Shown: positions 358 through 44,196 of the stretch, piece by piece
Layout of the letters: each line of letters opens with the position of its first letter
Position numbering within the stretch: position 1 is the stretch's first letter
DNA from: an uncultured bacterium
Lineage (GTDB): Bacteria > Armatimonadota > UBA5829
Assembly: GCA_964431685.1 (NCBI GenBank)
Contig: CAYSLA010000003.1
Span: 1-56,299 of the forward strand
Direction: 5' to 3'
DNA length: 56,299 nucleotides
Notes under the pieces: generated by a model
Databases searched by the model: none
Seen by the model: the letters and a program-made list of their open reading frames with translations, nothing else
What the model was told of the DNA's origin: nothing
Program-made: the position numbers and the translations under genes

Positions 358-2421
358 CTATGCGGCGTTTGTCTCGCGGTATTCGCCTCGCCAGTTTGCC
401 AGGAATTGTTCGAACTCAAGGGCTGGCACAGGTCTGCTCACCAGGTATCCTTGGACTTCGTCACATCCAAGCGTCTTGAGATAGTGCCACTGTTCGCGTG
501 TCTCGACACCTTCTGCTACTACCTTCATACACAGGTTGTGAGCCATTGCCACAACGGCGCCGCATATTGAGGCATCATCCAGATTTGTGGTAACATCCCG
601 CACAAACGAACGGTCTATCTTCAGGCAGTCAATGGGGAAGCGCTTCAGGTAGCTCAGCGACGAGTAGCCGGTTCCGAAGTCATCGATCGTGACGCTTACG
701 CCCAGCCTCTTGAGGAGACGAAGTGTCTCCACCGCGTGTTCAGCATTCTGCATAAGGGCGCCTTCGGTTATCTCTATCTCGAGCAATTGCGGCGGCAGAG
801 CCGATTCAGCGAGAACCGTCTCGATGATTCTCAACAGCGACTGATCCGATTGGAACTGCTTCGGCGACACATTGACGGAAACACGCAGATCGGCCCCTCC
901 CTGTTTGTGCCAGGCACAAGCCTGAGTGCACGCGTTGCGGAGCGCCCACTCTCCCAGGGGCACTATCAGCCCGGTTTCTTCAGCGATGGGTATGAATGAA
1001 GAGGGCGGAGTAATGCCGTTCTCGGAGTGCTGCCACCGAAGCAGCGCTTCTGCACCGGTCACAGCGCTGGTGAACAACTCGACTCTCGGCTGATAGAAGA
1101 GCACAAACTCCTCGCGCTCAACTGCTTTCCTTAGATCCTGCTCAATCCTCAGGTTCTCCATCGCGACGATGTTGGTATTCTCGCAGTAGGCTTGATACCG
1201 GTTTCTGCCTCTCTCTTTGGCCTTGTACATTGCAGCATCGGCGTTCATGAGCATGGTTTCCATATCCGTTCCGTGCGCAGGACAGATGCTGTAGCCGATG
1301 CTTGCTGATGTTACGAGCTCGTGTCCGTCCACCAGGAATGTGCACCTGAGCGACTCGAGCACGCGTCTGGCCGCCGCGCGGACATCTACCTCCGATTGCA
1401 CCTCACTGAGCAGAACTGCGAACTCGTCCCCGCCCATCCGTGCCAGAGTGCCCGTACCATCCACACACTCCGCGAGCCGGTCTCCAACCTGCCGCAGCAG
1501 CGCGTCTCCGACGTCGTGACCGAGCGTGTCATTGATTACCCTGAACCTGTCAAGATCCACAAACAGTACAGCCAGCTTCTTTCTGCTGTCTCTAGACTTC
1601 AGACTGCGATCCAGTTCCTGGCGGAAGAGTTGCCGATTGGGCAGGCCGGTGGCGATATCGTAGTGGGAAAGGCGATCGAGTTGTTGCGCGTGGTTCTTGT
1701 GCTCCGATATATCGCGGAGTATGACGCTGAACACCGTTCTTCCGTTCATCTCAATGGTTTCGACGGTAACGTGAACGTCAATCAATCCCCCGTCTTTGCG
1801 TCTGTGTCGCGTTTCGAAGCAGTCTCGCCCCTTGCGAAGAATGCGTTTGACGCGGCGGCGGAGAGCCTGTTCGTTGTGAGCAGCATCATAGTCCAAGACG
1901 CGCAGGGAGGAGAACTCCTCACGTGTGTAGCCGAGCATATCGCAGACAGCATCGTTGTACATTATGGGAAGCGAGCTGTTGGCGTCAATCAGCAGAACGC
2001 CGTCAGATAGCGAGTTCAGTAAAGCCTTGCAGCGGTTATCCGAATCTCTGAGCCGGTTCTGGGTCTCGGCCAGAGAACTCGCTGCTTCGCTCAGTTGCTC
2101 CTGAGTCTGACTGAGCTGCTGCAGCGTGGAGTAGAGGCTGTCACTGGAGGTCTCGCCGAAGTCTGTGCGCACCCTTTCCATCAAGAAGTAGGCGATTGCC
2201 GCACAGAGCAAAACGAACAGCACGACACTGAGGTGGATTGAGAGTTGCTCGCGGGTGGTCTCAAGCGTTAGTATCCAACCACCCAATGCCAGCGGAATAC
2301 ACAGCAGTCCAACCGCAACCACACTTGGGATTCGGCCGTTCTTAGGCTCCCTGGAACTTCGGTTCAAACCTAACTGGGGTCTGATTCTCGCAAACATTAT
2401 CCACCAGCCTGCTGGGCACAC
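358..2421 (-). CDS. Membrane-anchored PAS-GGDEF-EAL c-di-GMP turnover protein
   Basis: 687-aa ORF. Two N-terminal hydrophobic helices, a coiled-coil and a PAS-like segment are followed by a GGDEF domain (RMGGDEFAVLL). The EAL domain shows EALLRW and DDFGTGYSSLSYL. The start is either the GTG at 2421 or the ATG at 2397. Confidence 0.9.
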   Translation of the reverse strand: MCPAGWWIMFARIRPQLGLNRSSREPKNGRIPSVVAVGLLCIPLALGGWILTLETTREQLSIHLSVVLFVLLCAAIAYFLMERVRTDFGETSSDSLYSTLQQLSQTQEQLSEAASSLAETQNRLRDSDNRCKALLNSLSDGVLLIDANSSLPIMYNDAVCDMLGYTREEFSSLRVLDYDAAHNEQALRRRVKRILRKGRDCFETRHRRKDGGLIDVHVTVETIEMNGRTVFSVILRDISEHKNHAQQLDRLSHYDIATGLPNRQLFRQELDRSLKSRDSRKKLAVLFVDLDRFRVINDTLGHDVGDALLRQVGDRLAECVDGTGTLARMGGDEFAVLLSEVQSEVDVRAAARRVLESLRCTFLVDGHELVTSASIGYSICPAHGTDMETMLMNADAAMYKAKERGRNRYQAYCENTNIVAMENLRIEQDLRKAVEREEFVLFYQPRVELFTSAVTGAEALLRWQHSENGITPPSSFIPIAEETGLIVPLGEWALRNACTQACAWHKQGGADLRVSVNVSPKQFQSDQSLLRIIETVLAESALPPQLLEIEITEGALMQNAEHAVETLRLLKRLGVSVTIDDFGTGYSSLSYLKRFPIDCLKIDRSFVRDVTTNLDDASICGAVVAMAHNLCMKVVAEGVETREQWHYLKTLGCDEVQGYLVSRPVPALEFEQFLANWRGEYRETNAA

Positions 2422-2564: not shown

Positions 2565-3113
2565 CTATCTGCTCTTGATCGGACCGAGGGATATTTCAAA
2601 GTCGGATGGTGTGGTGGTCTCCGGCGCGATGATCACCGGTCTGGCGCCACGGTCAGGGGGTATGATGTCTTTGGTTCCCAGAGGAAACGAGCGGAGATTG
2701 CGCTGTGCCCACTGGGCGGCCTCTTTGCTCACAGGACTCTTGAGGTTGTAGCTGCGATACTGAATCATATCGCCTATGTGGGCGATTATGTTTACCAGAG
2801 TCACACCGGCGGACCAGAAGTCCCCGATACACACATAGTCACCGATGTTCGGATGCCAGATGGGTGTGTGCATAACGCATCGTGGGGATTGTTTGGGATA
2901 TCCCAGAGGAAGCGTGATGTCGACCACGTGTTTGGTGACACCGTGGGGCCGCTGCTGCGAAGCGTCCCACGCAATGCCACTCAGGTTATACGTGACCAGA
3001 TACCGGCCGGGCGGATCGCCCGACACTGCTTGAACCGATACAATGTCGCTGTGCGAAAACTCCGAGAGCACCTGTCTATAATCGTTGGCGAGTCGCCTTG
3101 CGCGGATACTCAT
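2565..3113 (-). CDS. Ubiquitin-conjugating enzyme (canonical UBC/E2 fold) homologue
   Basis: 182 aa. The core reads LPLGYPKQSPRCVMHTPIWHPNIGDYVCIGDFWSAGVTL, which matches the eukaryotic E2 core pattern YP..PP.v.F.T.i.HPNI...G.iCl..L...WSpa. The HPN codons are at 2847-2855 and the candidate catalytic Cys95 codon is at 2829-2831. The N-terminal RRLANDYRQVL resembles E2 helix 1. The ATG overlaps the JAMM stop (ATGA at 3110-3113). Confidence 0.85.
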   Translation of the reverse strand: MSIRARRLANDYRQVLSEFSHSDIVSVQAVSGDPPGRYLVTYNLSGIAWDASQQRPHGVTKHVVDITLPLGYPKQSPRCVMHTPIWHPNIGDYVCIGDFWSAGVTLVNIIAHIGDMIQYRSYNLKSPVSKEAAQWAQRNLRSFPLGTKDIIPPDRGARPVIIAPETTTPSDFEISLGPIKSR

Positions 3114-4567
3114 TCTTCTTCAGTCCCCGGTTTCTCCAGGCGCCTTGTTTCTTCGGGAGAGATTGCGCCCAGCATGTCCTTGGGCCGAGGATCACGCCGC
3201 GTATTTGCAAAGGCTGCAAGGTCCAATTGCTCGCTGCGTGTCATCTCGCCAAACACCCTCTTGAGGGTTGACTCCGGGGCGTCAAGAAGAGACGTGTGGA
3301 AGCGTTTCTTCTCGCCCTGAAGCCACCTCAGAGCAGCTCGGTACTCCTCCGGGGCTCTGGATTCGGCAGGGCCCTTCGAACTCGCTCGAACCATATTGGA
3401 CGCCAGTCGGGCGCGTTCGACTCTTTCCGGCCAAGTTCGCGCATGGCGCCAGTAGACTTCGGCAAGCCTTGCGGCGCGCGCAGACGCGGCCGAGGCCTGT
3501 GCCTGTGAAGCATCCTTGTCTACACCGATCCTCTCGCCTACTGAGAGCGGCCGATTGTCGCTGCGGTTGGCGGCGATGGAGGCTGAGATGATAAGGTTCG
3601 CTCCGTCAAGCTCGGGGCTGTCGAGTTCTCGCGCCCGCAACGCCGCCCGCACCTTCACAAGCCTTTCAAGTTCCCGAAGTGCGGCACTGTTGGTCCGATC
3701 TGCAGCCACAGCACGCCTTAACCAATCCTCCGCGTCCGAGTAGTCCGAAATCCTGATCAAGCGCAGAGCCACCTTAGTTGGGTCGGGAGGCGGGTCAGGA
3801 CGCATCGCAATTGAAAGGATTAATCCTGCGAGCACGAGCGTGGCAATTGCCCAGGGCAACCATCCGCGAATCCCGAGCTTTCGGGTCCGGCGCGTGCCAG
3901 CTATTGAGGATGAGGCAGCATTAGCGGCCGCGGTGTCGCGCCTGCGATATTCGCTAAGCCTCCTGGCAGTGTCTCTGGCCTTTCTGGACGATCGCTTCTC
4001 CTCGAAAATGTAGAATCCTCGGGTTCTTACCAGGGATCCGTCTTTCCATCTGAAGCAGCCCCAGTTCTCGTGCATTGGGTCCAGAACGAGCGCGACCTGC
4101 CACGGGTCCCGAAAGAACCCGTTGTGGATAAAGTCGTCCTCCCTGCTCATGAAGACCCCAAGGCCAGGGTGCGTATGATACCACCCAACTATCTGCCGAT
4201 TCTCCCCGAGGCGAGCGAGCTCCTTGCTGATCTCCTTCCAGGATTCGTGCGTGAATGTGAAGGAGATGTCCGTCTTCTGGTCACTGGGCGCTTCGATGAT
4301 GCCGTCGATCTCGATGTATGATTCCGTCTGTGTGCGGTAGAAGCCGCCCACCAGCACTCCTCCAGTCTCTACGCCGGAGTCTGCCGTGGCTTGAGCGGAA
4401 ATCCCCGCTATCACACTCTCGCGGATGAAGACCGGGATGCTGTCTGAGGCGGGATCGTCGTACGCGAAGCAGACAAGAGACCTGTCCAGCAACGGGCTGG
4501 GTTTTGACTCTATGCCTTTACGCTTTGACTCACCAAGACTGATTTCGAAATCACCGTCAGAGTTCAA
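3110..4567 (-). CDS. JAMM/MPN+ metalloisopeptidase (deubiquitinase-like) with one TM helix and a ~230-aa C-terminal helical domain
   Basis: 485 aa. It has the conserved Glu (VETGGVLVG) and the complete JAMM motif WYHTHPGLGVFMSREDD (H-x-H-x7-S-x2-D). A hydrophobic helix WLPWAIATLVLAGLILSIAM (about residues 236-255) is preceded by RRTRKLGIR. The C-terminal region is Arg/Ala-rich and helical. The start is a TTG at 4567 with a GGGAG Shine-Dalgarno 7 nt upstream. Confidence 0.85.
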   Translation of the reverse strand: MNSDGDFEISLGESKRKGIESKPSPLLDRSLVCFAYDDPASDSIPVFIRESVIAGISAQATADSGVETGGVLVGGFYRTQTESYIEIDGIIEAPSDQKTDISFTFTHESWKEISKELARLGENRQIVGWYHTHPGLGVFMSREDDFIHNGFFRDPWQVALVLDPMHENWGCFRWKDGSLVRTRGFYIFEEKRSSRKARDTARRLSEYRRRDTAAANAASSSIAGTRRTRKLGIRGWLPWAIATLVLAGLILSIAMRPDPPPDPTKVALRLIRISDYSDAEDWLRRAVAADRTNSAALRELERLVKVRAALRARELDSPELDGANLIISASIAANRSDNRPLSVGERIGVDKDASQAQASAASARAARLAEVYWRHARTWPERVERARLASNMVRASSKGPAESRAPEEYRAALRWLQGEKKRFHTSLLDAPESTLKRVFGEMTRSEQLDLAAFANTRRDPRPKDMLGAISPEETRRLEKPGTEEE

Positions 4568-4585
4568 GGATCATCTCCCGCTGAA

Positions 4586-4618
4586 CACCTCCCCCCTCCG
4601 TTCCGGAGGGGGGAGGTG
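4586..4618. repeat. Perfect 15-bp-stem C/G-rich palindrome CACCTCCCCCCTCCG-ttc-CGGAGGGGGGAGGTG
   Basis: Read directly. It lies in the intra-operon spacer about 20 nt upstream of the JAMM start. A related copy is at 13890-13929. One arm contains the SD-like GGAGGTG and the other contains its complement CACCTCC. Confidence 0.85.
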
Positions 4619-4705
4619 CTGATACGCTGCACTTCGTAATGGACGTGAAGGGGCGAGTTCTCAAATGCCGCCCCATCGTGGGCTCGGCCAGGCAAGATGT
4701 CTGTA

Positions 4706-4737
4706 CCACAATGCCCGACATGAGTGTCGGGCCTACC
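4706..4737 (-). repeat. REP element (GTAGG + CCCGACA..TGTCGGG palindrome), copy 1 in the Ub-operon spacer
   Basis: The plus strand reads ccacaatgcccgacatgagtgtcgggcctacc. On the minus strand it starts with GGTAGG followed by a hairpin. It is 31/32 identical to the copy at 4778-4809 and belongs to the same family as 44139-44196. Confidence 0.85.
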
Positions 4738-4777
4738 TTCTGGGGGAGGTTGGACGCCGCCCCCCGTGTCTCGTGCG

Positions 4778-4809
4778 CCACAATGCCCGACACGAGTGTC
4801 GGGCCTACC
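4778..4809 (-). repeat. REP element, copy 2 (direct orientation relative to copy 1, 72 bp apart)
   Basis: The plus strand reads ccacaatgcccgacacgagtgtcgggcctacc. It has a single mismatch to copy 1, located in the hairpin loop. Confidence 0.85.
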
Positions 4810-4829
4810 ATAGCCTGCCCCATAGTGGT

Positions 4830-5243
4830 CTAGCCCAGGAACTTCCAGAGCAGAAACGCCCCACCACCAATGATAATGCCGTAGAAGATTATGTTGCTGA
4901 GGGATGCCGTGCGCTGCTTCACTCTGCAGTTCCAGCAGAGCAGGTGCTTTTCGTCCGCCACCTCGCCACACGCAAAACATCTCATACTGGGCCTGTCCGC
5001 TTCAACGGACGACTTTGGCTGCGAAAGCTCAACAGTGGCATCCACCCGCGGCGCGATCTTCTCCGCTATACTCTCATCCCACAGCGCAGCGCCATCACAC
5101 CCATACACCGCGCATTTTCCGTTCGCTTTCCAGCACTCCCGATGATGCGATGACCCACATCTGGGACACCTTACACGCTCATCGGATTCGCCGATGTTTC
5201 CCAGGCAGTACGGGCACTTGCCCGGTTCGCTGTTTGTGCTCAT
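4830..5243 (-). CDS. Tail-anchored RING-like (C4HC3 binuclear treble-clef) zinc-finger protein, paralogue B; candidate E3
   Basis: 137 aa. The N-terminal ligand pattern is CPYC-x12-CPRC-x4-H-x2-CW-x5-C-x4-C. A second CxxC-x10-CxxC zinc ribbon follows (CFACGEVADEKHLLCWNC). The C-terminal hydrophobic helix is IIFYGIIIGGGAFLLWKF. The ATG overlaps the stop of paralogue A (ATGA at 5240-5243). Confidence 0.75.
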   Translation of the reverse strand: MSTNSEPGKCPYCLGNIGESDERVRCPRCGSSHHRECWKANGKCAVYGCDGAALWDESIAEKIAPRVDATVELSQPKSSVEADRPSMRCFACGEVADEKHLLCWNCRVKQRTASLSNIIFYGIIIGGGAFLLWKFLG

Positions 5244-5692
5244 TTAATCCACTGCCCTCCAATCGTAATGAGCAGTATCAATCCAACCAAACCCAGGACA
5301 AACAAAGCTCCGAGCATAAGGGCCACCGGATTGTCTGTCCTCTGCGACTCCTCAAAACTGCGCCTGCATTCCTGGCAGCTCAGTTCCCCCTCTGGCAGTT
5401 GCCGTCCGCACACGATGCACGGATTGTACCCTGAGGGGGCGGTTCTGTAAGGCTTGATTACTATCTTCTCTCGCTGCCCGCCAACATCAAGTGTCACCTG
5501 CTCCGTGACATTGATCTCGGTGCGCTTTACGGATCTCGGACAATCCGGAACGCAGCAACCGCCGTTCTCGTCCCAGCACTCGCTGTGCATCACGGATCCG
5601 CAGGCCTGGCACGCGACGGCGGTCTCGCCCTGTGCGATATTGTCGAGGCAATACGGACACGTGCGCTCCGACGGGGAACCCTGTTCTCCCAT
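5240..5692 (-). CDS. Tail-anchored RING-like (C4HC3) zinc-finger protein, paralogue A; candidate E3
   Basis: The pattern is CPYC-x12-CQAC-x4-H-x2-CW-x6-C(C)-x3-C, followed by CIVCGRQLPEGELSCQEC and the C-terminal TM helix LMLGALFVLGLVGLILLITIGG. I prefer the ATG at 5692, which lies 7 nt after the E1 stop, over the TTG at 5713 given in the ORF track. Confidence 0.75.
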   Translation of the reverse strand: MGEQGSPSERTCPYCLDNIAQGETAVACQACGSVMHSECWDENGGCCVPDCPRSVKRTEINVTEQVTLDVGGQREKIVIKPYRTAPSGYNPCIVCGRQLPEGELSCQECRRSFEESQRTDNPVALMLGALFVLGLVGLILLITIGGQWIK

Positions 5693-5699
5693 ATCTGTG

Positions 5700-6896
5700 C
5701 TAGACAATCCCAAATACCTGCTTCAGGTCTCCGCTGATCTCCACACCCACGCTTGTCTCGGAGAATCTGACCGTGACGATCTCCGCCGGGGCAAACCCCA
5801 TATCCTGAAGCGTCAGATGACTGAGACTCGCTTCTCCCACACATTCTGTTACGACATCCGGTAGCCTGAGAGTTCCACACTTTGGGCACGCCGCTTCGTC
5901 CGGCGTCACCGTATCCAATAATCGGTAGAATCCAACCCGCTCTTCACAGGCTCTGCATTCCAGACTGGTAACTATCTCGGACGGAGGCTCGATTCGTCCG
6001 GTCATGCCCATTTCGTGTTGGGCGGCGTCAAGCACATCGGATATGGTGGCAGTTTGGCGATCCAGTTCTGTTTCTATCACGACGTCCAGCGTTTCGTGGC
6101 TTATGCAGTCGTCCCTGCGCACGTAGCCTACGGTGAAGCAGTCGTAGGTCAGTCCGTCGAAGAAGAATCCTCTACCAGCCAGTCCGGGAAGACCGGCGCC
6201 GGGATGCAGCAGTTTGACCGCTTCCTGAACCTCCACGCCGGCGATAACCGCAGCGGTTGCCGGGGTAGTGGGAGTTCGTCCCGCGTGTGCTGCCTGCCTT
6301 TCAATGAAGCCGCACGAGTTCCTTATGGTCATGAACCTGGTGTCCTGCTCACTCAGTGTGCACTCATAGCAGGGGCCATCAGGCGGCACAAATACTCTGG
6401 CTATGCCCTGAAAGGCTTCCGTAGCACCGTCCACCCAGGGCCTGTTCACCTTCCAGCAAGCCCGGTTGACCGCAAAACGCGCGTCGCGGTTGTCCAATCC
6501 GGCAATTACCACGTCTGCCCAGCGGAAGAAGCCAGCGCCCACCTGCGTAGTAACGTCTGCGTTCATCCATCGGGGCTGACAGTCCGGGTTGATAGATTGA
6601 GCTGCCTGGGCCGCAACCTCTGCTTTACACCTGCCCCGGTCGGACTTGCGATACAGAACGCTGCGTGAGAGATTGGAGTCCTCGATCTCGTCGAAGTCCA
6701 CTATCAGCAAGTGACCCACCCCGAGAAGCGCGAGGTTCTTGACTATCTCGTTGCCTAGAGCTCCTGCCCCGACAACCAATACGCGTGCATCGGCCAGTGC
6801 ACGCTGATCCCACCACGGGATCAGGCGAAGCCGCTCATAGCGGTCTTCCGGAGCGTCAAGATGTATGATTTCGCTGGCGGGTTCATCGAAGTTCAT
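5700..6896 (-). CDS. Ubiquitin-activating (E1) enzyme homologue, ThiF/MoeB/Uba adenylation fold with C-terminal Zn-ribbon and putative ubiquitin-fold extension
   Basis: The Rossmann/ATP motif is VLVVGAGALGNEIVKNLALLGVGHLLIVDFDEIEDSNLSRSVLY, followed by GLDNRDARFAVNRAC. CxxC pairs are present (PCYEC, CRAC...CPKC), and a Cys in the crossover region (IRNSCGF) is a candidate catalytic residue. I prefer the ATG at 6896, 5 nt after the Ubl stop, over the track start at 6959, which would overlap the Ubl gene by 58 nt. Confidence 0.85.
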   Translation of the reverse strand: MNFDEPASEIIHLDAPEDRYERLRLIPWWDQRALADARVLVVGAGALGNEIVKNLALLGVGHLLIVDFDEIEDSNLSRSVLYRKSDRGRCKAEVAAQAAQSINPDCQPRWMNADVTTQVGAGFFRWADVVIAGLDNRDARFAVNRACWKVNRPWVDGATEAFQGIARVFVPPDGPCYECTLSEQDTRFMTIRNSCGFIERQAAHAGRTPTTPATAAVIAGVEVQEAVKLLHPGAGLPGLAGRGFFFDGLTYDCFTVGYVRRDDCISHETLDVVIETELDRQTATISDVLDAAQHEMGMTGRIEPPSEIVTSLECRACEERVGFYRLLDTVTPDEAACPKCGTLRLPDVVTECVGEASLSHLTLQDMGFAPAEIVTVRFSETSVGVEISGDLKQVFGIV

Positions 6897-6901
6897 TTCG
6901 C

Positions 6902-7171
6902 CTATCCGGCCGTTATCTCCGGTATCAACCGCAGAACATCTCCTTCGTTTACCTCGCACTGTGCCAGGGTGAGGTTGTCCAGAAGATGCCTGCCGGTCGC
7001 TTTGTGCAGAAACTTATATGTGATTGGAACGCCGGCAGTGTTAACCACGGGCAGATATAACGCCTCTATGAGCTTTTCGACTACTCGCCCCACCGGGACA
7101 TCATCCGGAACAACTGCTTCCTGCTCCTTGCTTCCCGTGGTGTCTATTACTACGATATTGAGCTTTGCCAT
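6902..7171 (-). CDS. Ubiquitin-like beta-grasp protein ending in a free C-terminal glycine (…LRLIPEITAG-stop)
   Basis: 89 aa. The hydrophobic periodicity resembles ubiquitin (LNIVVID…, GDVLRLIP). The ORF terminates immediately after Gly89. A GAGG Shine-Dalgarno lies 7 nt upstream of the ATG. It is the first gene of the operon, directly upstream of the E1. Confidence 0.75.
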   Translation of the reverse strand: MAKLNIVVIDTTGSKEQEAVVPDDVPVGRVVEKLIEALYLPVVNTAGVPITYKFLHKATGRHLLDNLTLAQCEVNEGDVLRLIPEITAG

Positions 7172-7189: not shown

Positions 7190-7218
7190 ATTATACCCGA
7201 TTACGCCGCGACACTCAA
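7190..7218 (-). promoter_or_regulatory. Sigma70-type promoter of the Ubl-E1-RING-JAMM-E2 operon (TTGAGT-17 nt-TATAAT)
   Basis: The minus strand reads TTGAGTgtcgcggcgtaatcgggTATAAT. The -10 element ends about 18 nt upstream of the Ubl ATG, so the 5' leader would be very short. Confidence 0.6.
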
Positions 7219-7511: not shown

Positions 7512-8495
7512 ATGGTAACGATGGTTTGCGTTTTGAACCGTCAGAGGAAAGAAAGATTGGATAAGAAAACTGCTGTATCCGTTCTGCTGGCGGCACTGAT
7601 CCTGGCATCGGCCGCGGCGTCCACACCCCTGCAGGCTGCACAGCTTTCGGGCACACTGAGCTTGTCCGGCGCCTGGGCAATCTACCCGCTCGTCGTCAAG
7701 TGGGCCGAAGCCTTCAAGAAAGCGAACCCGAAAGTCAAGATGGACATCTCAGCCGGAGGCGCGGGCAAGGGCATGGCTGACGCTCTCGTTGGGGCAGTCG
7801 ATATCGGAATGGTTTCGCGCGAGGTGGATAAGACCGAACTTGCGAAAGGCGCGCTGCCGATTCTCATTGTCAAAGACGCGGTCTTCCCAACCATCAGCGC
7901 ACGCAATCCCGCCGTGAAACGGGCTGCCGCAAAGGGCATGTCGCGCAAGACACTCGTTGACATCTATGTCAGAGGTACGGTCAAGAACTGGCGCGACGTC
8001 GGAGGGGCCAACACTCCGATCCACGCCTACACTCGCTCCGATGCGTGCGGGGCTGCGTCAGCGTGGGCCGCCGCCCTCGGCAAGTTCAAGCAGGATGATC
8101 TGAAGGGAATTGGAGTCTACGGAGATCCTGGACTCCTGGCGGCTGTGGTGCGCGATCCGCTGGGGATGGGCTACAACAACCTGAGCTACGTCTTCACCGG
8201 CGACAAGGTAGCCAGGGGGATAGCGATCGTGCCAATCGACGCCAACAACAACGGCAAGATTGATGCTCACGAGCGAATTGACTCCCTGTCAAAGGCAGAA
8301 AGAGAGATTGCGAGCGGACGCTATATCGGCGCGCGCAGGGAGTATCTCATGACGAAAGGTAAGCCGAAACCACTCGCGCGCGCATTCATCGAATTCGCCC
8401 TGAGCGACGCCGGAAACAAGATAGTCAAAGAGGTCGGAGGCTACGTGCCGTTGTCCGACTCCGAACGTGCCCAGCAACTGCGAAAGATGAGATAG
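7512..8495 (+). CDS. pstS: Phosphate ABC transporter substrate-binding protein PstS
   Basis: Signal peptide (KKTAVSVLLAALILASAAAS). The PstS-type core reads SGAWAIYPLVVKWAEAF…ISAGGAGKGMADALVGAVDIGMVSREV. It is followed by pstC, pstA and pstB. Confidence 0.85.
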   Translation: MVTMVCVLNRQRKERLDKKTAVSVLLAALILASAAASTPLQAAQLSGTLSLSGAWAIYPLVVKWAEAFKKANPKVKMDISAGGAGKGMADALVGAVDIGMVSREVDKTELAKGALPILIVKDAVFPTISARNPAVKRAAAKGMSRKTLVDIYVRGTVKNWRDVGGANTPIHAYTRSDACGAASAWAAALGKFKQDDLKGIGVYGDPGLLAAVVRDPLGMGYNNLSYVFTGDKVARGIAIVPIDANNNGKIDAHERIDSLSKAEREIASGRYIGARREYLMTKGKPKPLARAFIEFALSDAGNKIVKEVGGYVPLSDSERAQQLRKMR

Positions 8496-8519
8496 CTCCG
8501 GAAGCAAAGGGAATCGAAA

Positions 8520-9440
8520 GTGAGTCTCAGGAGGCGGATAATTGAATTCATCGCAGGCAGGACAATGCTGGCGACATCGCTCTTCTCAGGGGCGCTGGTC
8601 GTCGTCATCGCGGTGGCTCTATATGTCCGCGCAAGTCCACTGATTGAATCAGAATCACTGTGGGCCATAGTATCCGGGGCTGACTGGAAGCCGTCGGAGG
8701 CCAGGTTCGGTCTGAGGCCGTTTATCATAGGCACTGCCTGGGTAACGGTCATCGCCGCGATTATCGCGGTGCCGCTGAGCATCTTCGCGTCAGTCTACCT
8801 TGCCGAATATGCCTCGCCAAGGACGCGTTCGTTTCTCAAGCCTCTTATAGACTTGCTTGCGGGAATTCCGTCGGTAGTTTATGGCGCGTGGGCAGCACTG
8901 GTGATCGTTCCGCTTATCGCCGACCATCTCGGGCCGTACGCTCAAGCCAATCTGAAAAGCGTGCCCCTGGCGGGAGCCGAATACGTAACAGGATACAGCG
9001 TACTGGCCGGCGGAATTGTACTCGCCGTGATGATCATCCCAGTGATAATCTCCGTCTCGGAGGAAGTGCTGCGAGCGGTTCCGCGCGACTATCGCGAAGC
9101 CTCCTACGCGGTAGGGGCTACCCGCCTGGAAACGATAACAAGGGTGGTGATCCGAAGAGCGCTGCGTGGCCTGATGGCAGCAGTTGTGCTGGGCATATCC
9201 CGGGCTCTGGGCGAGACAATGGCTGTCTTGATGGTAGTGGGGAACGTTGTGGCTTCGCCGAAGTCGATATTTGACCCGGCGTACCCACTGCCTGCTCTCA
9301 TAGCCAATAACTACGGTGAGATGATGTCCATACCAATGTATGACTCCGCTCTTCTTTGCGCCGCTCTGGTGCTGCTCGTGGTTGTCCTTTTCTTCAATGT
9401 AGGGGCGCGGCTTGTGCTCGTTAGCGGGATGTCAAGATGA
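8520..9440 (+). CDS. pstC: Phosphate ABC transporter permease PstC
   Basis: 306-aa polytopic membrane protein. The EAA-loop region reads EEVLRAVPRDYREASYAVGATRLETI. Position in the pst operon supports the call. Confidence 0.85.
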   Translation: MSLRRRIIEFIAGRTMLATSLFSGALVVVIAVALYVRASPLIESESLWAIVSGADWKPSEARFGLRPFIIGTAWVTVIAAIIAVPLSIFASVYLAEYASPRTRSFLKPLIDLLAGIPSVVYGAWAALVIVPLIADHLGPYAQANLKSVPLAGAEYVTGYSVLAGGIVLAVMIIPVIISVSEEVLRAVPRDYREASYAVGATRLETITRVVIRRALRGLMAAVVLGISRALGETMAVLMVVGNVVASPKSIFDPAYPLPALIANNYGEMMSIPMYDSALLCAALVLLVVVLFFNVGARLVLVSGMSR

Positions 9441-44138: not shown

Positions 44139-44196
44139 GGTAGGCCCGACACTCCTGTCGGGCCCCTGCACACCCGACAGGAGTGTCGGGCCTACC
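44139..44196. repeat. REPIN: two inverted REPs (GGTAGGCCCGACACTCCTGTCGGG / reverse complement) separated by 10 nt
   Basis: Perfect 24-bp arms read directly. Each arm is itself a hairpin preceded by GTAG. It lies in the intergenic region between the export gene and mfd. Confidence 0.9.

Follow-up and report, generated by a model that had tools for sequence, protein, structure and literature searches.

In bacteria, the nearest equivalents of eukaryotic ubiquitination are operons that carry a full set of genes for a ubiquitin-like protein (Ubl), E1, E2, RING E3, and deubiquitinating enzyme (DUB). A computational study by Burroughs, Iyer, and Aravind (Mol Biosyst, 2011) reportedly described prokaryotic RING-type Ubl operons, with genes for a YukD-like Ubl, E1, E2, Prok-RING_1, and JAB. 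No experimental study of bacterial Ubl/E1/E2/RING/DUB operons was found in the literature searched. Presented here is the JAMM peptidase gene (positions 3110 to 4567, minus strand) of such an operon in DNA from an uncultured bacterium of the Armatimonadota (lineage UBA5829; GenBank assembly GCA_964431685.1, contig CAYSLA010000003.1, positions 1 to 56,299); the whole of this 56,299-nucleotide stretch is referred to as the window. The encoded protein of 485 amino acids was predicted to combine a catalytic domain, a linker, one transmembrane (TM) helix, and a C-terminal domain on the other side of the membrane, and it probably works as a membrane-tethered deconjugase beside two tail-anchored RING E3s.

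The JAMM gene was the fifth of six co-oriented, overlapping or abutting genes (in the order Ubl, E1, RING, RING, JAMM, and E2), which were identified by Pfam as encoding a YukD-like Ubl, a ThiF E1, two Prok-RING_1 proteins, a JAB protein, and a UQ_con protein. Members of prokaryotic RING finger family 1 have been described as "characterized by a transmembrane domain" (PMC4029887), and the gene set, the Pfam families, the anchored RING proteins, and the pairing of a JAB with conjugation enzymes in Prok-RING_1 Ubl operons all matched the window cassette. No defining difference was seen, and the helical tail of the window JAMM protein lay outside Pfam and solved folds. All defining features tested were present, and by its predicted gene content the cassette is a Prok-RING_1 Ubl conjugation operon. 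The Rpn11-like DUB of Caldiarchaeum subterraneum (CsRpn11) is soluble. It belongs to a Ub/E1/E2/srRING/Rpn11 operon (Hennell James 2017, PMC5654768; Fuchs 2018, PMC6043591; PDB 6FJV) with a logic like that of the window cassette (Ubl, E1, E2, small RING, and Rpn11-like DUB). The Caldiarchaeum DUB is able to trim C-terminal extensions of the Ubl, which fits the variable extensions in loci related to the window. The Caldiarchaeum Ubl is ubiquitin-like with GG, whereas that of the window is YukD-like and ends in AG.

Homologues of the JAMM protein were gathered by HMMER (2763 representative clusters at E ≤ 1e-10); family statistics were based on the best 168 sequences of this search, and conservation and a Pfam LysM scan were based on 148 homologues. 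The Rpn11-like JAMM/MPN+ catalytic domain (residues ~25 to 190; 3998 to 4495, minus strand) was delimited by Pfam, conservation, and solved relatives. Prok-JAB/JAB matches whose scores passed the gathering threshold (PF14464, E = 4.4e-9; PF01398, E = 5.8e-8) covered residues 50 to 149, and the stretch conserved among the homologues, near-invariant columns included, ran from P25 to about residue 190. The full E...HxH(x7)SxxD motif was intact with canonical spacing (E67, H131, H133, S141, and D144). An earlier note, made from the letters of the window, had placed a JAMM domain at residues ~60 to 190, in agreement with these matches. Among PDB sequences, the domain matched best the Caldiarchaeum subterraneum Rpn11-like entries 6FJV and 6FJU (E about 2e-7), and next came Rpn11 of yeast and human, AMSH, and CSN5. 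CsRpn11 is the closest solved relative, with the match limited to the catalytic core (deposited chains of 155 to 228 amino acids versus 485 in the window protein). The domain was assigned by these sequence matches to the Rpn11-like subgroup, not to Cap3-type or other prokaryotic JABs, and, as predicted from the motif and the operon, the protein is most likely a deconjugating isopeptidase.

Between the catalytic domain and the TM helix, composition, alignment, and modeling delimited a basic, poorly conserved linker of about 45 residues (residues 191 to 234; 3866 to 3997, minus strand), which ended in RRTRKLGIR (residues 226 to 234). A full-length AlphaFold2 (AF2) model built with a five-sequence alignment was poor (predicted local distance difference test [pLDDT] score, 56.7) and was excluded from fold comparison; the linker in this model had low confidence (pLDDT < 50).

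The linker was followed by a single hydrophobic helix, GWLPWAIATLVLAGLILSIAM (residues 235 to 255; 3803 to 3865, minus strand), none of whose 21 residues is charged and whose Kyte-Doolittle 19-mer peak was 2.18, compared to 1.08 for the next best segment in the protein. The Pro-rich exit RPDPPPDP (residues 256 to 263) came directly after it. With TM status assigned by hydropathy (Kyte-Doolittle 19-mer, ≥1.6 in homologues) and with at least 120 residues after HxHP taken as the limit for assessment, 143 of the best 168 homologues could be assessed, and a comparable hydrophobic segment was found in 134 of them (94%), at a median of 104.5 residues past HxHP. Across the family, the median length of the uncharged span of this segment was 25 residues. 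Its hydrophobicity was kept and its sequence was not, even among the closest relatives, and because of this combination the segment was interpreted as an anchor rather than a buried core helix. A second hydrophobic helix was present in 31 homologues, enclosing a loop of typically 130 to 200 amino acids. As judged by hydropathy, a membrane helix at this place characterizes the family, and the architecture seen in the window is usual (94%) among Rpn11-like JAMMs of Prok-RING_1 operons. More distant JAMM loci (L007 to L017, Gemmatimonadota and Bryobacterales among them), in which Prok-RING_1 genes were not present, were set aside.

The orientation of the protein was approached through those homologues that carry LysM, a peptidoglycan-binding, extracytoplasmic module. 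Pfam LysM was matched in 21 of the 148 homologues, and a local LysM profile identified 23 carriers; exactly one TM separated the JAMM domain from the LysM in 22 of these 23. No N-terminal hydrophobic segment or signal peptide was found in the JAMM protein by hydropathy, and the partner proteins (Ubl, ATP-dependent E1, and E2) are cytoplasmic. Because a LysM follows one TM, a signal sequence is lacking, and the partner proteins are cytoplasmic, an N-in/C-out arrangement was favored, and the JAMM protein is very probably bitopic and of type II, with a cytoplasmic protease and a C-terminal domain that most likely lies on the outside. The two-TM loop homologues (n = 31) lent comparative support to N-in/C-out. 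The same orientation had been put forward in the earlier note, and it appears to be supported by the LysM and two-TM comparison.

Several points weigh against this topology and against the membrane-face role proposed for the protein. The LysM evidence came from paralogous clades, not from the window protein itself. The positive-inside rule, from which the earlier note had argued, held for the window protein (5 Lys/Arg and 0 acidic residues on the N side; 3 Lys/Arg and 2 acidic residues on the C side), and the bias was weak over 102 single-TM homologues (mean, 2.78 versus 2.48 Lys/Arg; Wilcoxon test, P = 0.08); since it was nonsignificant at the family level, the rule was dropped as the main topology argument. 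No unfoldase or proteasome gene was found near the cassette among the window genes, and the role at the membrane face was derived entirely from localization. Finally, a simple summed Hessa-scale insertion value for the helix was about 0 kcal/mol, which is borderline. Such an approximate energy would suit a segment that does not span the membrane and is instead a buried core helix or an in-plane anchor, with the whole protein, the C-terminal domain included, in the cytoplasm, where proteins often have Arg-rich helical domains. This arrangement is very hard to reconcile with 21 uncharged residues lying between a basic stretch and a Pro-rich exit and with hydrophobicity that is conserved without conservation of sequence, the opposite of what is expected of a core helix. 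Furthermore, the segment packed against nothing in the full-length model, the C-terminal domain folded confidently without it, LysM followed the equivalent segment in 22 homologues, and two-TM variants exist. A buried helix of a soluble fold, which the earlier note had named as an outcome that would undo its proposal, was considered very unlikely on the grounds that the segment is variable in sequence, unpacked, and dispensable for folding of the domain.

The C-terminal domain (residues 256 to 485; 3113 to 3802, minus strand), predicted to be extracytoplasmic, was a tail of about 230 amino acids with 15.8% Ala and 14% Arg, predicted to be all helical. The basic stretch, the hydrophobic helix, the Pro-rich exit, and the Arg/Ala-rich helical tail that had been noticed earlier were each present. 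Iterative searching among the tails of homologues showed that the window-type tail was common to 21 representatives over about 200 residues, and an alignment of 19 tail sequences contained conserved positions at ~22% identity to the window protein, its one close relative apart. AF2 modeling of the C-terminal domain with this alignment produced an all-alpha structure of 13 helices (pLDDT, 89.7; predicted template modeling score, 0.82). A Foldseek search with this model, which had been proposed as a check, returned no meaningful match in PDB or BFVD (best E about 0.4; TM-scores ≤ 0.26), and the domain fell in no Pfam family in a Pfam scan of the window protein. A profile search of PDB sequences gave a weak match to a designed TPR (CTPR) over ~30 residues (profile positions 22 to 53, E = 8e-5). 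The first helix pair of the domain is TPR-like, and the rest matches no known fold; assignment as a TPR repeat protein was rejected, given one hairpin only, no Pfam TPR match, and the low Foldseek TM-scores. No stand-alone or signal-peptide version of the domain, which could have fixed its compartment independently, was found; word-indexed homologue searches with the single sequence and with a profile gave only P0002 and P0035, which are JAMM fusions or fragments.

Tails of other homologues were largely of other kinds. All-against-all comparison of 130 tails produced 44 clusters, of which the large ones were the window type (21 members), LysM (21), another family (19), two unrelated two-TM loop families (12 and 9), and one of six members; there were also three clusters of two or three members and 35 singletons. 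At least six unrelated families, split by clade, thus followed the TM, and hhalign found the window-type tail unrelated to the two-TM loop family of 12 members (probability, 0.1%). Four single-TM members ended within 30 residues of the TM (distances of 7 to 30 residues). Because of the unrelated tail families and the near-tailless members, the conserved chassis was taken to be JAMM-linker-TM, with the outer part repeatedly replaced, and the C-terminal domain, as modeled, is a real conserved fold that forms a clade-specific add-on to this chassis. Conservation of the two parts, whose retention in homologues the earlier note had proposed as a check, was divided, the TM helix being kept in 134 of 143 homologues and the C-terminal domain being swapped between clades.

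Two further explanations of the outer domain were weighed against these patterns. In one, which goes back to the earlier note, the periplasmic domain would read an envelope or cell wall signal and switch the JAMM or its clustering with the RING E3s. The exchange of tails between clades is like that of an input module (LysM, TPR/HEAT, and coiled coils), the TM-loop-TM layout of 31 homologues resembles periplasmic sensor loops, LysM is established as binding peptidoglycan, and the window tail is well folded and conserved, not a mere spacer. However, no recognized sensor fold (Cache, PAS, CHASE, or 4HB) or transducer (HAMP) was found in Pfam scans, and members ending 7 to 30 residues past the TM need no periplasmic input. 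Allosteric transmission through a single helix is also hard to picture, because the ~45 poorly conserved, low-confidence residues of the linker lie between the enzyme and the TM. A sensory function was on balance judged unlikely. In the other explanation, the TM would be purely an anchor, the periplasmic domain a passive oligomerization or stabilizing element without a part in localization or signaling, and the JAMM mainly a nonspecific recycler of Ubl. The anchor is indeed the sole universally conserved feature, and the tails vary widely and in some members are almost missing, yet a fold of ~200 amino acids kept over 21 representative clusters at ~22% identity implies selection on the fold, and repeated LysM acquisition implies a specific extracytoplasmic interaction. 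This explanation was regarded as distinctly improbable.

The membrane-tethered deconjugase remained the favored reading. The TM helices of the two window RING proteins were located at residues 131 to 149 and 114 to 136, and because these helices lie at the end of the proteins, with only 5 to 8 residues behind them, both were interpreted as tail-anchored. TMs were C-terminal to the RING in all 16 Prok-RING_1 proteins from the window and eight related loci. The cassette would form a self-contained, eukaryote-like Ubl conjugation system from whose products the JAMM removes Ubl. An Rpn11-like zinc protease would be held on the cytoplasmic side of the inner membrane by a flexible basic linker, with one helix spanning the membrane and the 230-residue helical domain sitting in the periplasm. 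The RING E3s would be tail-anchored in the same membrane, and the Ubl, E1, and E2 would be soluble; because the E3s and the JAMM are anchored and the other components are soluble, conjugation and deconjugation would be restricted to the cytoplasmic side of the membrane. The targets would presumably be membrane or membrane-proximal proteins, and the periplasmic module would most likely position or tether the enzyme via the cell wall (in LysM clades) or via a partner protein (in the window type).

Other described systems were also compared. Cap3 of type II cyclic oligonucleotide-based antiphage signaling systems (CBASS) and BilC of Bil systems have a JAB/JAMM fold and deconjugate opposite an E1 and E2, as predicted for the window protein, which gave weak PADLOC JAB matches. 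These enzymes are soluble, of about 160 amino acids, and occur without a RING E3; the PADLOC JAB models (157 to 170 amino acids) matched only residues 33 to 144 of the window protein, in keeping with the distinction that had been drawn earlier between the window architecture and soluble Cap3/BilC-type JABs. PADLOC gave no match for the window E2, Ubl, or either RING protein. Membership in Bil (BilABCD) was rejected, with only a partial BilD match on the E1 (1.3e-9) and generic JAB matches, the E2 and Ubl unmatched, and two RINGs present. CBASS Cap2/Cap3 membership was likewise rejected; E1 and E2 are separate, the operon has no CD-NTase, and the only profile matches were generic E1-E2 and JAB ones. 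Bub operons contain Ubl-E2 or E2-E1 fusions, a JAB-E1 fusion, and a DUF6527 protease (PMC11601596, PMC11601603). Neither fusions nor DUF6527 were found in the window operon, and membership in Bub was rejected as well.

A layout analogy exists with eukaryotic membrane-tethered ubiquitin machinery, which includes TM RING E3s (Hrd1, Doa10, and MARCH) and TM-anchored DUBs (USP19 and USP30). The analogy is limited to the placing of E3s and a DUB in one membrane with cytosolic catalytic domains; the anchors are not homologous to those of the window, and the DUBs anchored in eukaryotes belong to the USP-type cysteine proteases rather than to the JAMMs. No link to a retrotranslocon, unfoldase, or proteasome was evident in the window, in contrast to the eukaryotic machinery.

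The ORF at 3110 to 4567 is genuine. Its plus-strand translation was full of stops, and the coding strand is the minus strand. The TTG start codon is supported because the predicted N terminus MNSDGDFEISLG aligned exactly with the initiator Met of homologues MSEHDDFEIVLG, MSDNDRDFEIELG, and MNEHEDFQIELG, because GGGAG occurred 8 to 12 nt 5' of the TTG, and because the stop codon of the gene shares ATGA with the start of the E2 gene. An identical JAMM occurred on a second contig (L021), also with a GGDEF-EAL neighbor. In L006 (5673 to 7065), the orthologous JAMM gene was broken into two ORFs (131 and 324 amino acids) by an apparent frameshift, which could be an assembly error or mark a pseudogene.

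The Ubl gene (6902 to 7171, minus strand; Pfam) encodes 89 amino acids that end exactly at ...LRLIPEITAG. The tail LR[LI][IQ]PEITAG was invariant from Armatimonadota-like to Pirellulales loci (window, L001, L002, L004, L006, and L019), and PEITAG was followed elsewhere by 0 to 10 variable residues (GA, GK, NGSR, C, or GGLRIVCQMN) and in the window by none. This pattern implies that the conjugation end of the Ubl is -AG rather than -GG, as read from these sequences. Because the window Ubl already ends at ...ITAG, the window JAMM would be needed for deconjugation, not for precursor maturation.

A short motif resembling the Ubl tail PEITAG was found at the N terminus of the JAMM protein (DFEISLG, residues 6 to 12; 4532 to 4552, minus strand) and recurred at the C terminus of the E2, in the tail DFEISLGPIKSR* (motif at 2583 to 2603, minus strand). 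Orthologous operons (L001, L005, and L006) shared it, with E2 tails EPQISLGPIRTRN*, LEITLGPMRNTQR*, and LDIDLGPIRERRPG*, and it was present in 38 of 155 JAMM homologues versus a background of 0.6%. The shared motif may imitate the Ubl tail, act as a pseudo-substrate (in which Gly-Pro would perhaps withstand cleavage), or serve as a common docking strand; more speculatively, as a pseudo-substrate it could dock the soluble E2 to the membrane-bound DUB.

The remaining genes of the cassette were also on the minus strand. The E1 gene (ThiF family, by Pfam and homology; 5700 to 6959) has a true start that is probably the ATG at 6896; the GTG start of the ORF overlaps the Ubl gene by 58 nt, and homologues favored the ATG (MNFDEPASEII...), 6 nt past the Ubl stop. 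Two RING E3 genes (5240 to 5713 and 4830 to 5243) were each annotated by Pfam and hydropathy as encoding Prok-RING_1 and a zinc ribbon with a C-terminal TM. The E2 gene (2565 to 3113; Pfam UQ_con, with an HPN...C motif) encodes its C-terminal tail at 2565 to 2603. A promoter-like site, TTGAGT-17-TATAAT, was located just 5' of the Ubl gene (7190 to 7218, minus strand) by consensus match only.

A structured 262-nt spacer (4568 to 4829, minus strand) separated the second RING gene from the JAMM gene, which would otherwise abut; it was absent from L001 and L006. Inside it lay two copies of a repetitive extragenic palindromic (REP)-like palindrome, GCCCGACACTCNTGTCGGGC, together with a GC-rich hairpin of 16 bp that stops about 20 nt short of the JAMM start, and the spacer folded with z = -3.8. 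The palindrome occurred twice more at 44144 to 44191, where the chance expectation was 0 matches, and Rfam gave no match in the window. The spacer may partition expression of the operon.

The six-gene set was found in identical order in L001 and L006, and the closest genome match, L004, was an Armatimonadota metagenome-assembled genome (MAG). Related operons in a Pirellulales MAG and in metagenome contigs kept the E1, the TM-bearing JAB, the E2, Prok-RING_1, and mostly the YukD-like Ubl, and they added FHA proteins and small membrane proteins. Distant operons (L002, 11945 to 13336 and 9324 to 10394; L019, 7543 to 10853; L020, 7943 to 9055) added FHA/Yop-YscD_cpl proteins and a second JAB; also found among them were a fusion of FHA to RING, the small membrane proteins DUF4190 and DUF2752, and a Prok-RING_1 protein that two TMs connect to a trypsin-like protease. 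These additions hint at a link to phospho-threonine signaling at the membrane.

In the window, the cassette had as neighbors a PAS-GGDEF-EAL gene (358 to 2421, minus strand), whose product starts with two hydrophobic segments in its N-terminal part, and a divergent pstS/pstC operon for phosphate transport (7512 to 9440, plus strand). Neighbors varied by locus (pst and GGDEF-EAL in the window, feoAB in L001), and the rest of the window held chromosomal housekeeping genes (LigA, Mfd, PFK, and 6PGD). The cassette was therefore considered self-contained, with no obvious defense island; a defense-island or mobile-element context was rejected in view of the housekeeping genes and the variable flanks.

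Since its architecture is the rule in the family, the window gene can be counted as a typical representative of a large family, and what was obtained is mainly its correct annotation rather than a new kind of system. Its interest lies in the family-wide pattern, in which the E3s and the DUB appear to be membrane-anchored and the DUB bears interchangeable outer modules, including peptidoglycan-binding LysM. Membrane anchoring narrows the search for substrates to the inner membrane, on its cytoplasmic face, and, together with the swappable periplasmic modules, it suggests where this uncharacterized bacterial ubiquitin-like system acts. A bolder and rather doubtful possibility is that the exchangeable periplasmic module controls JAMM activity or clustering relative to the tail-anchored RING E3s, with Ubl conjugation on inner-membrane proteins reporting the state of the cell wall or envelope; if true, this would amount to a trans-envelope ubiquitin-like signaling or quality-control system in bacteria.

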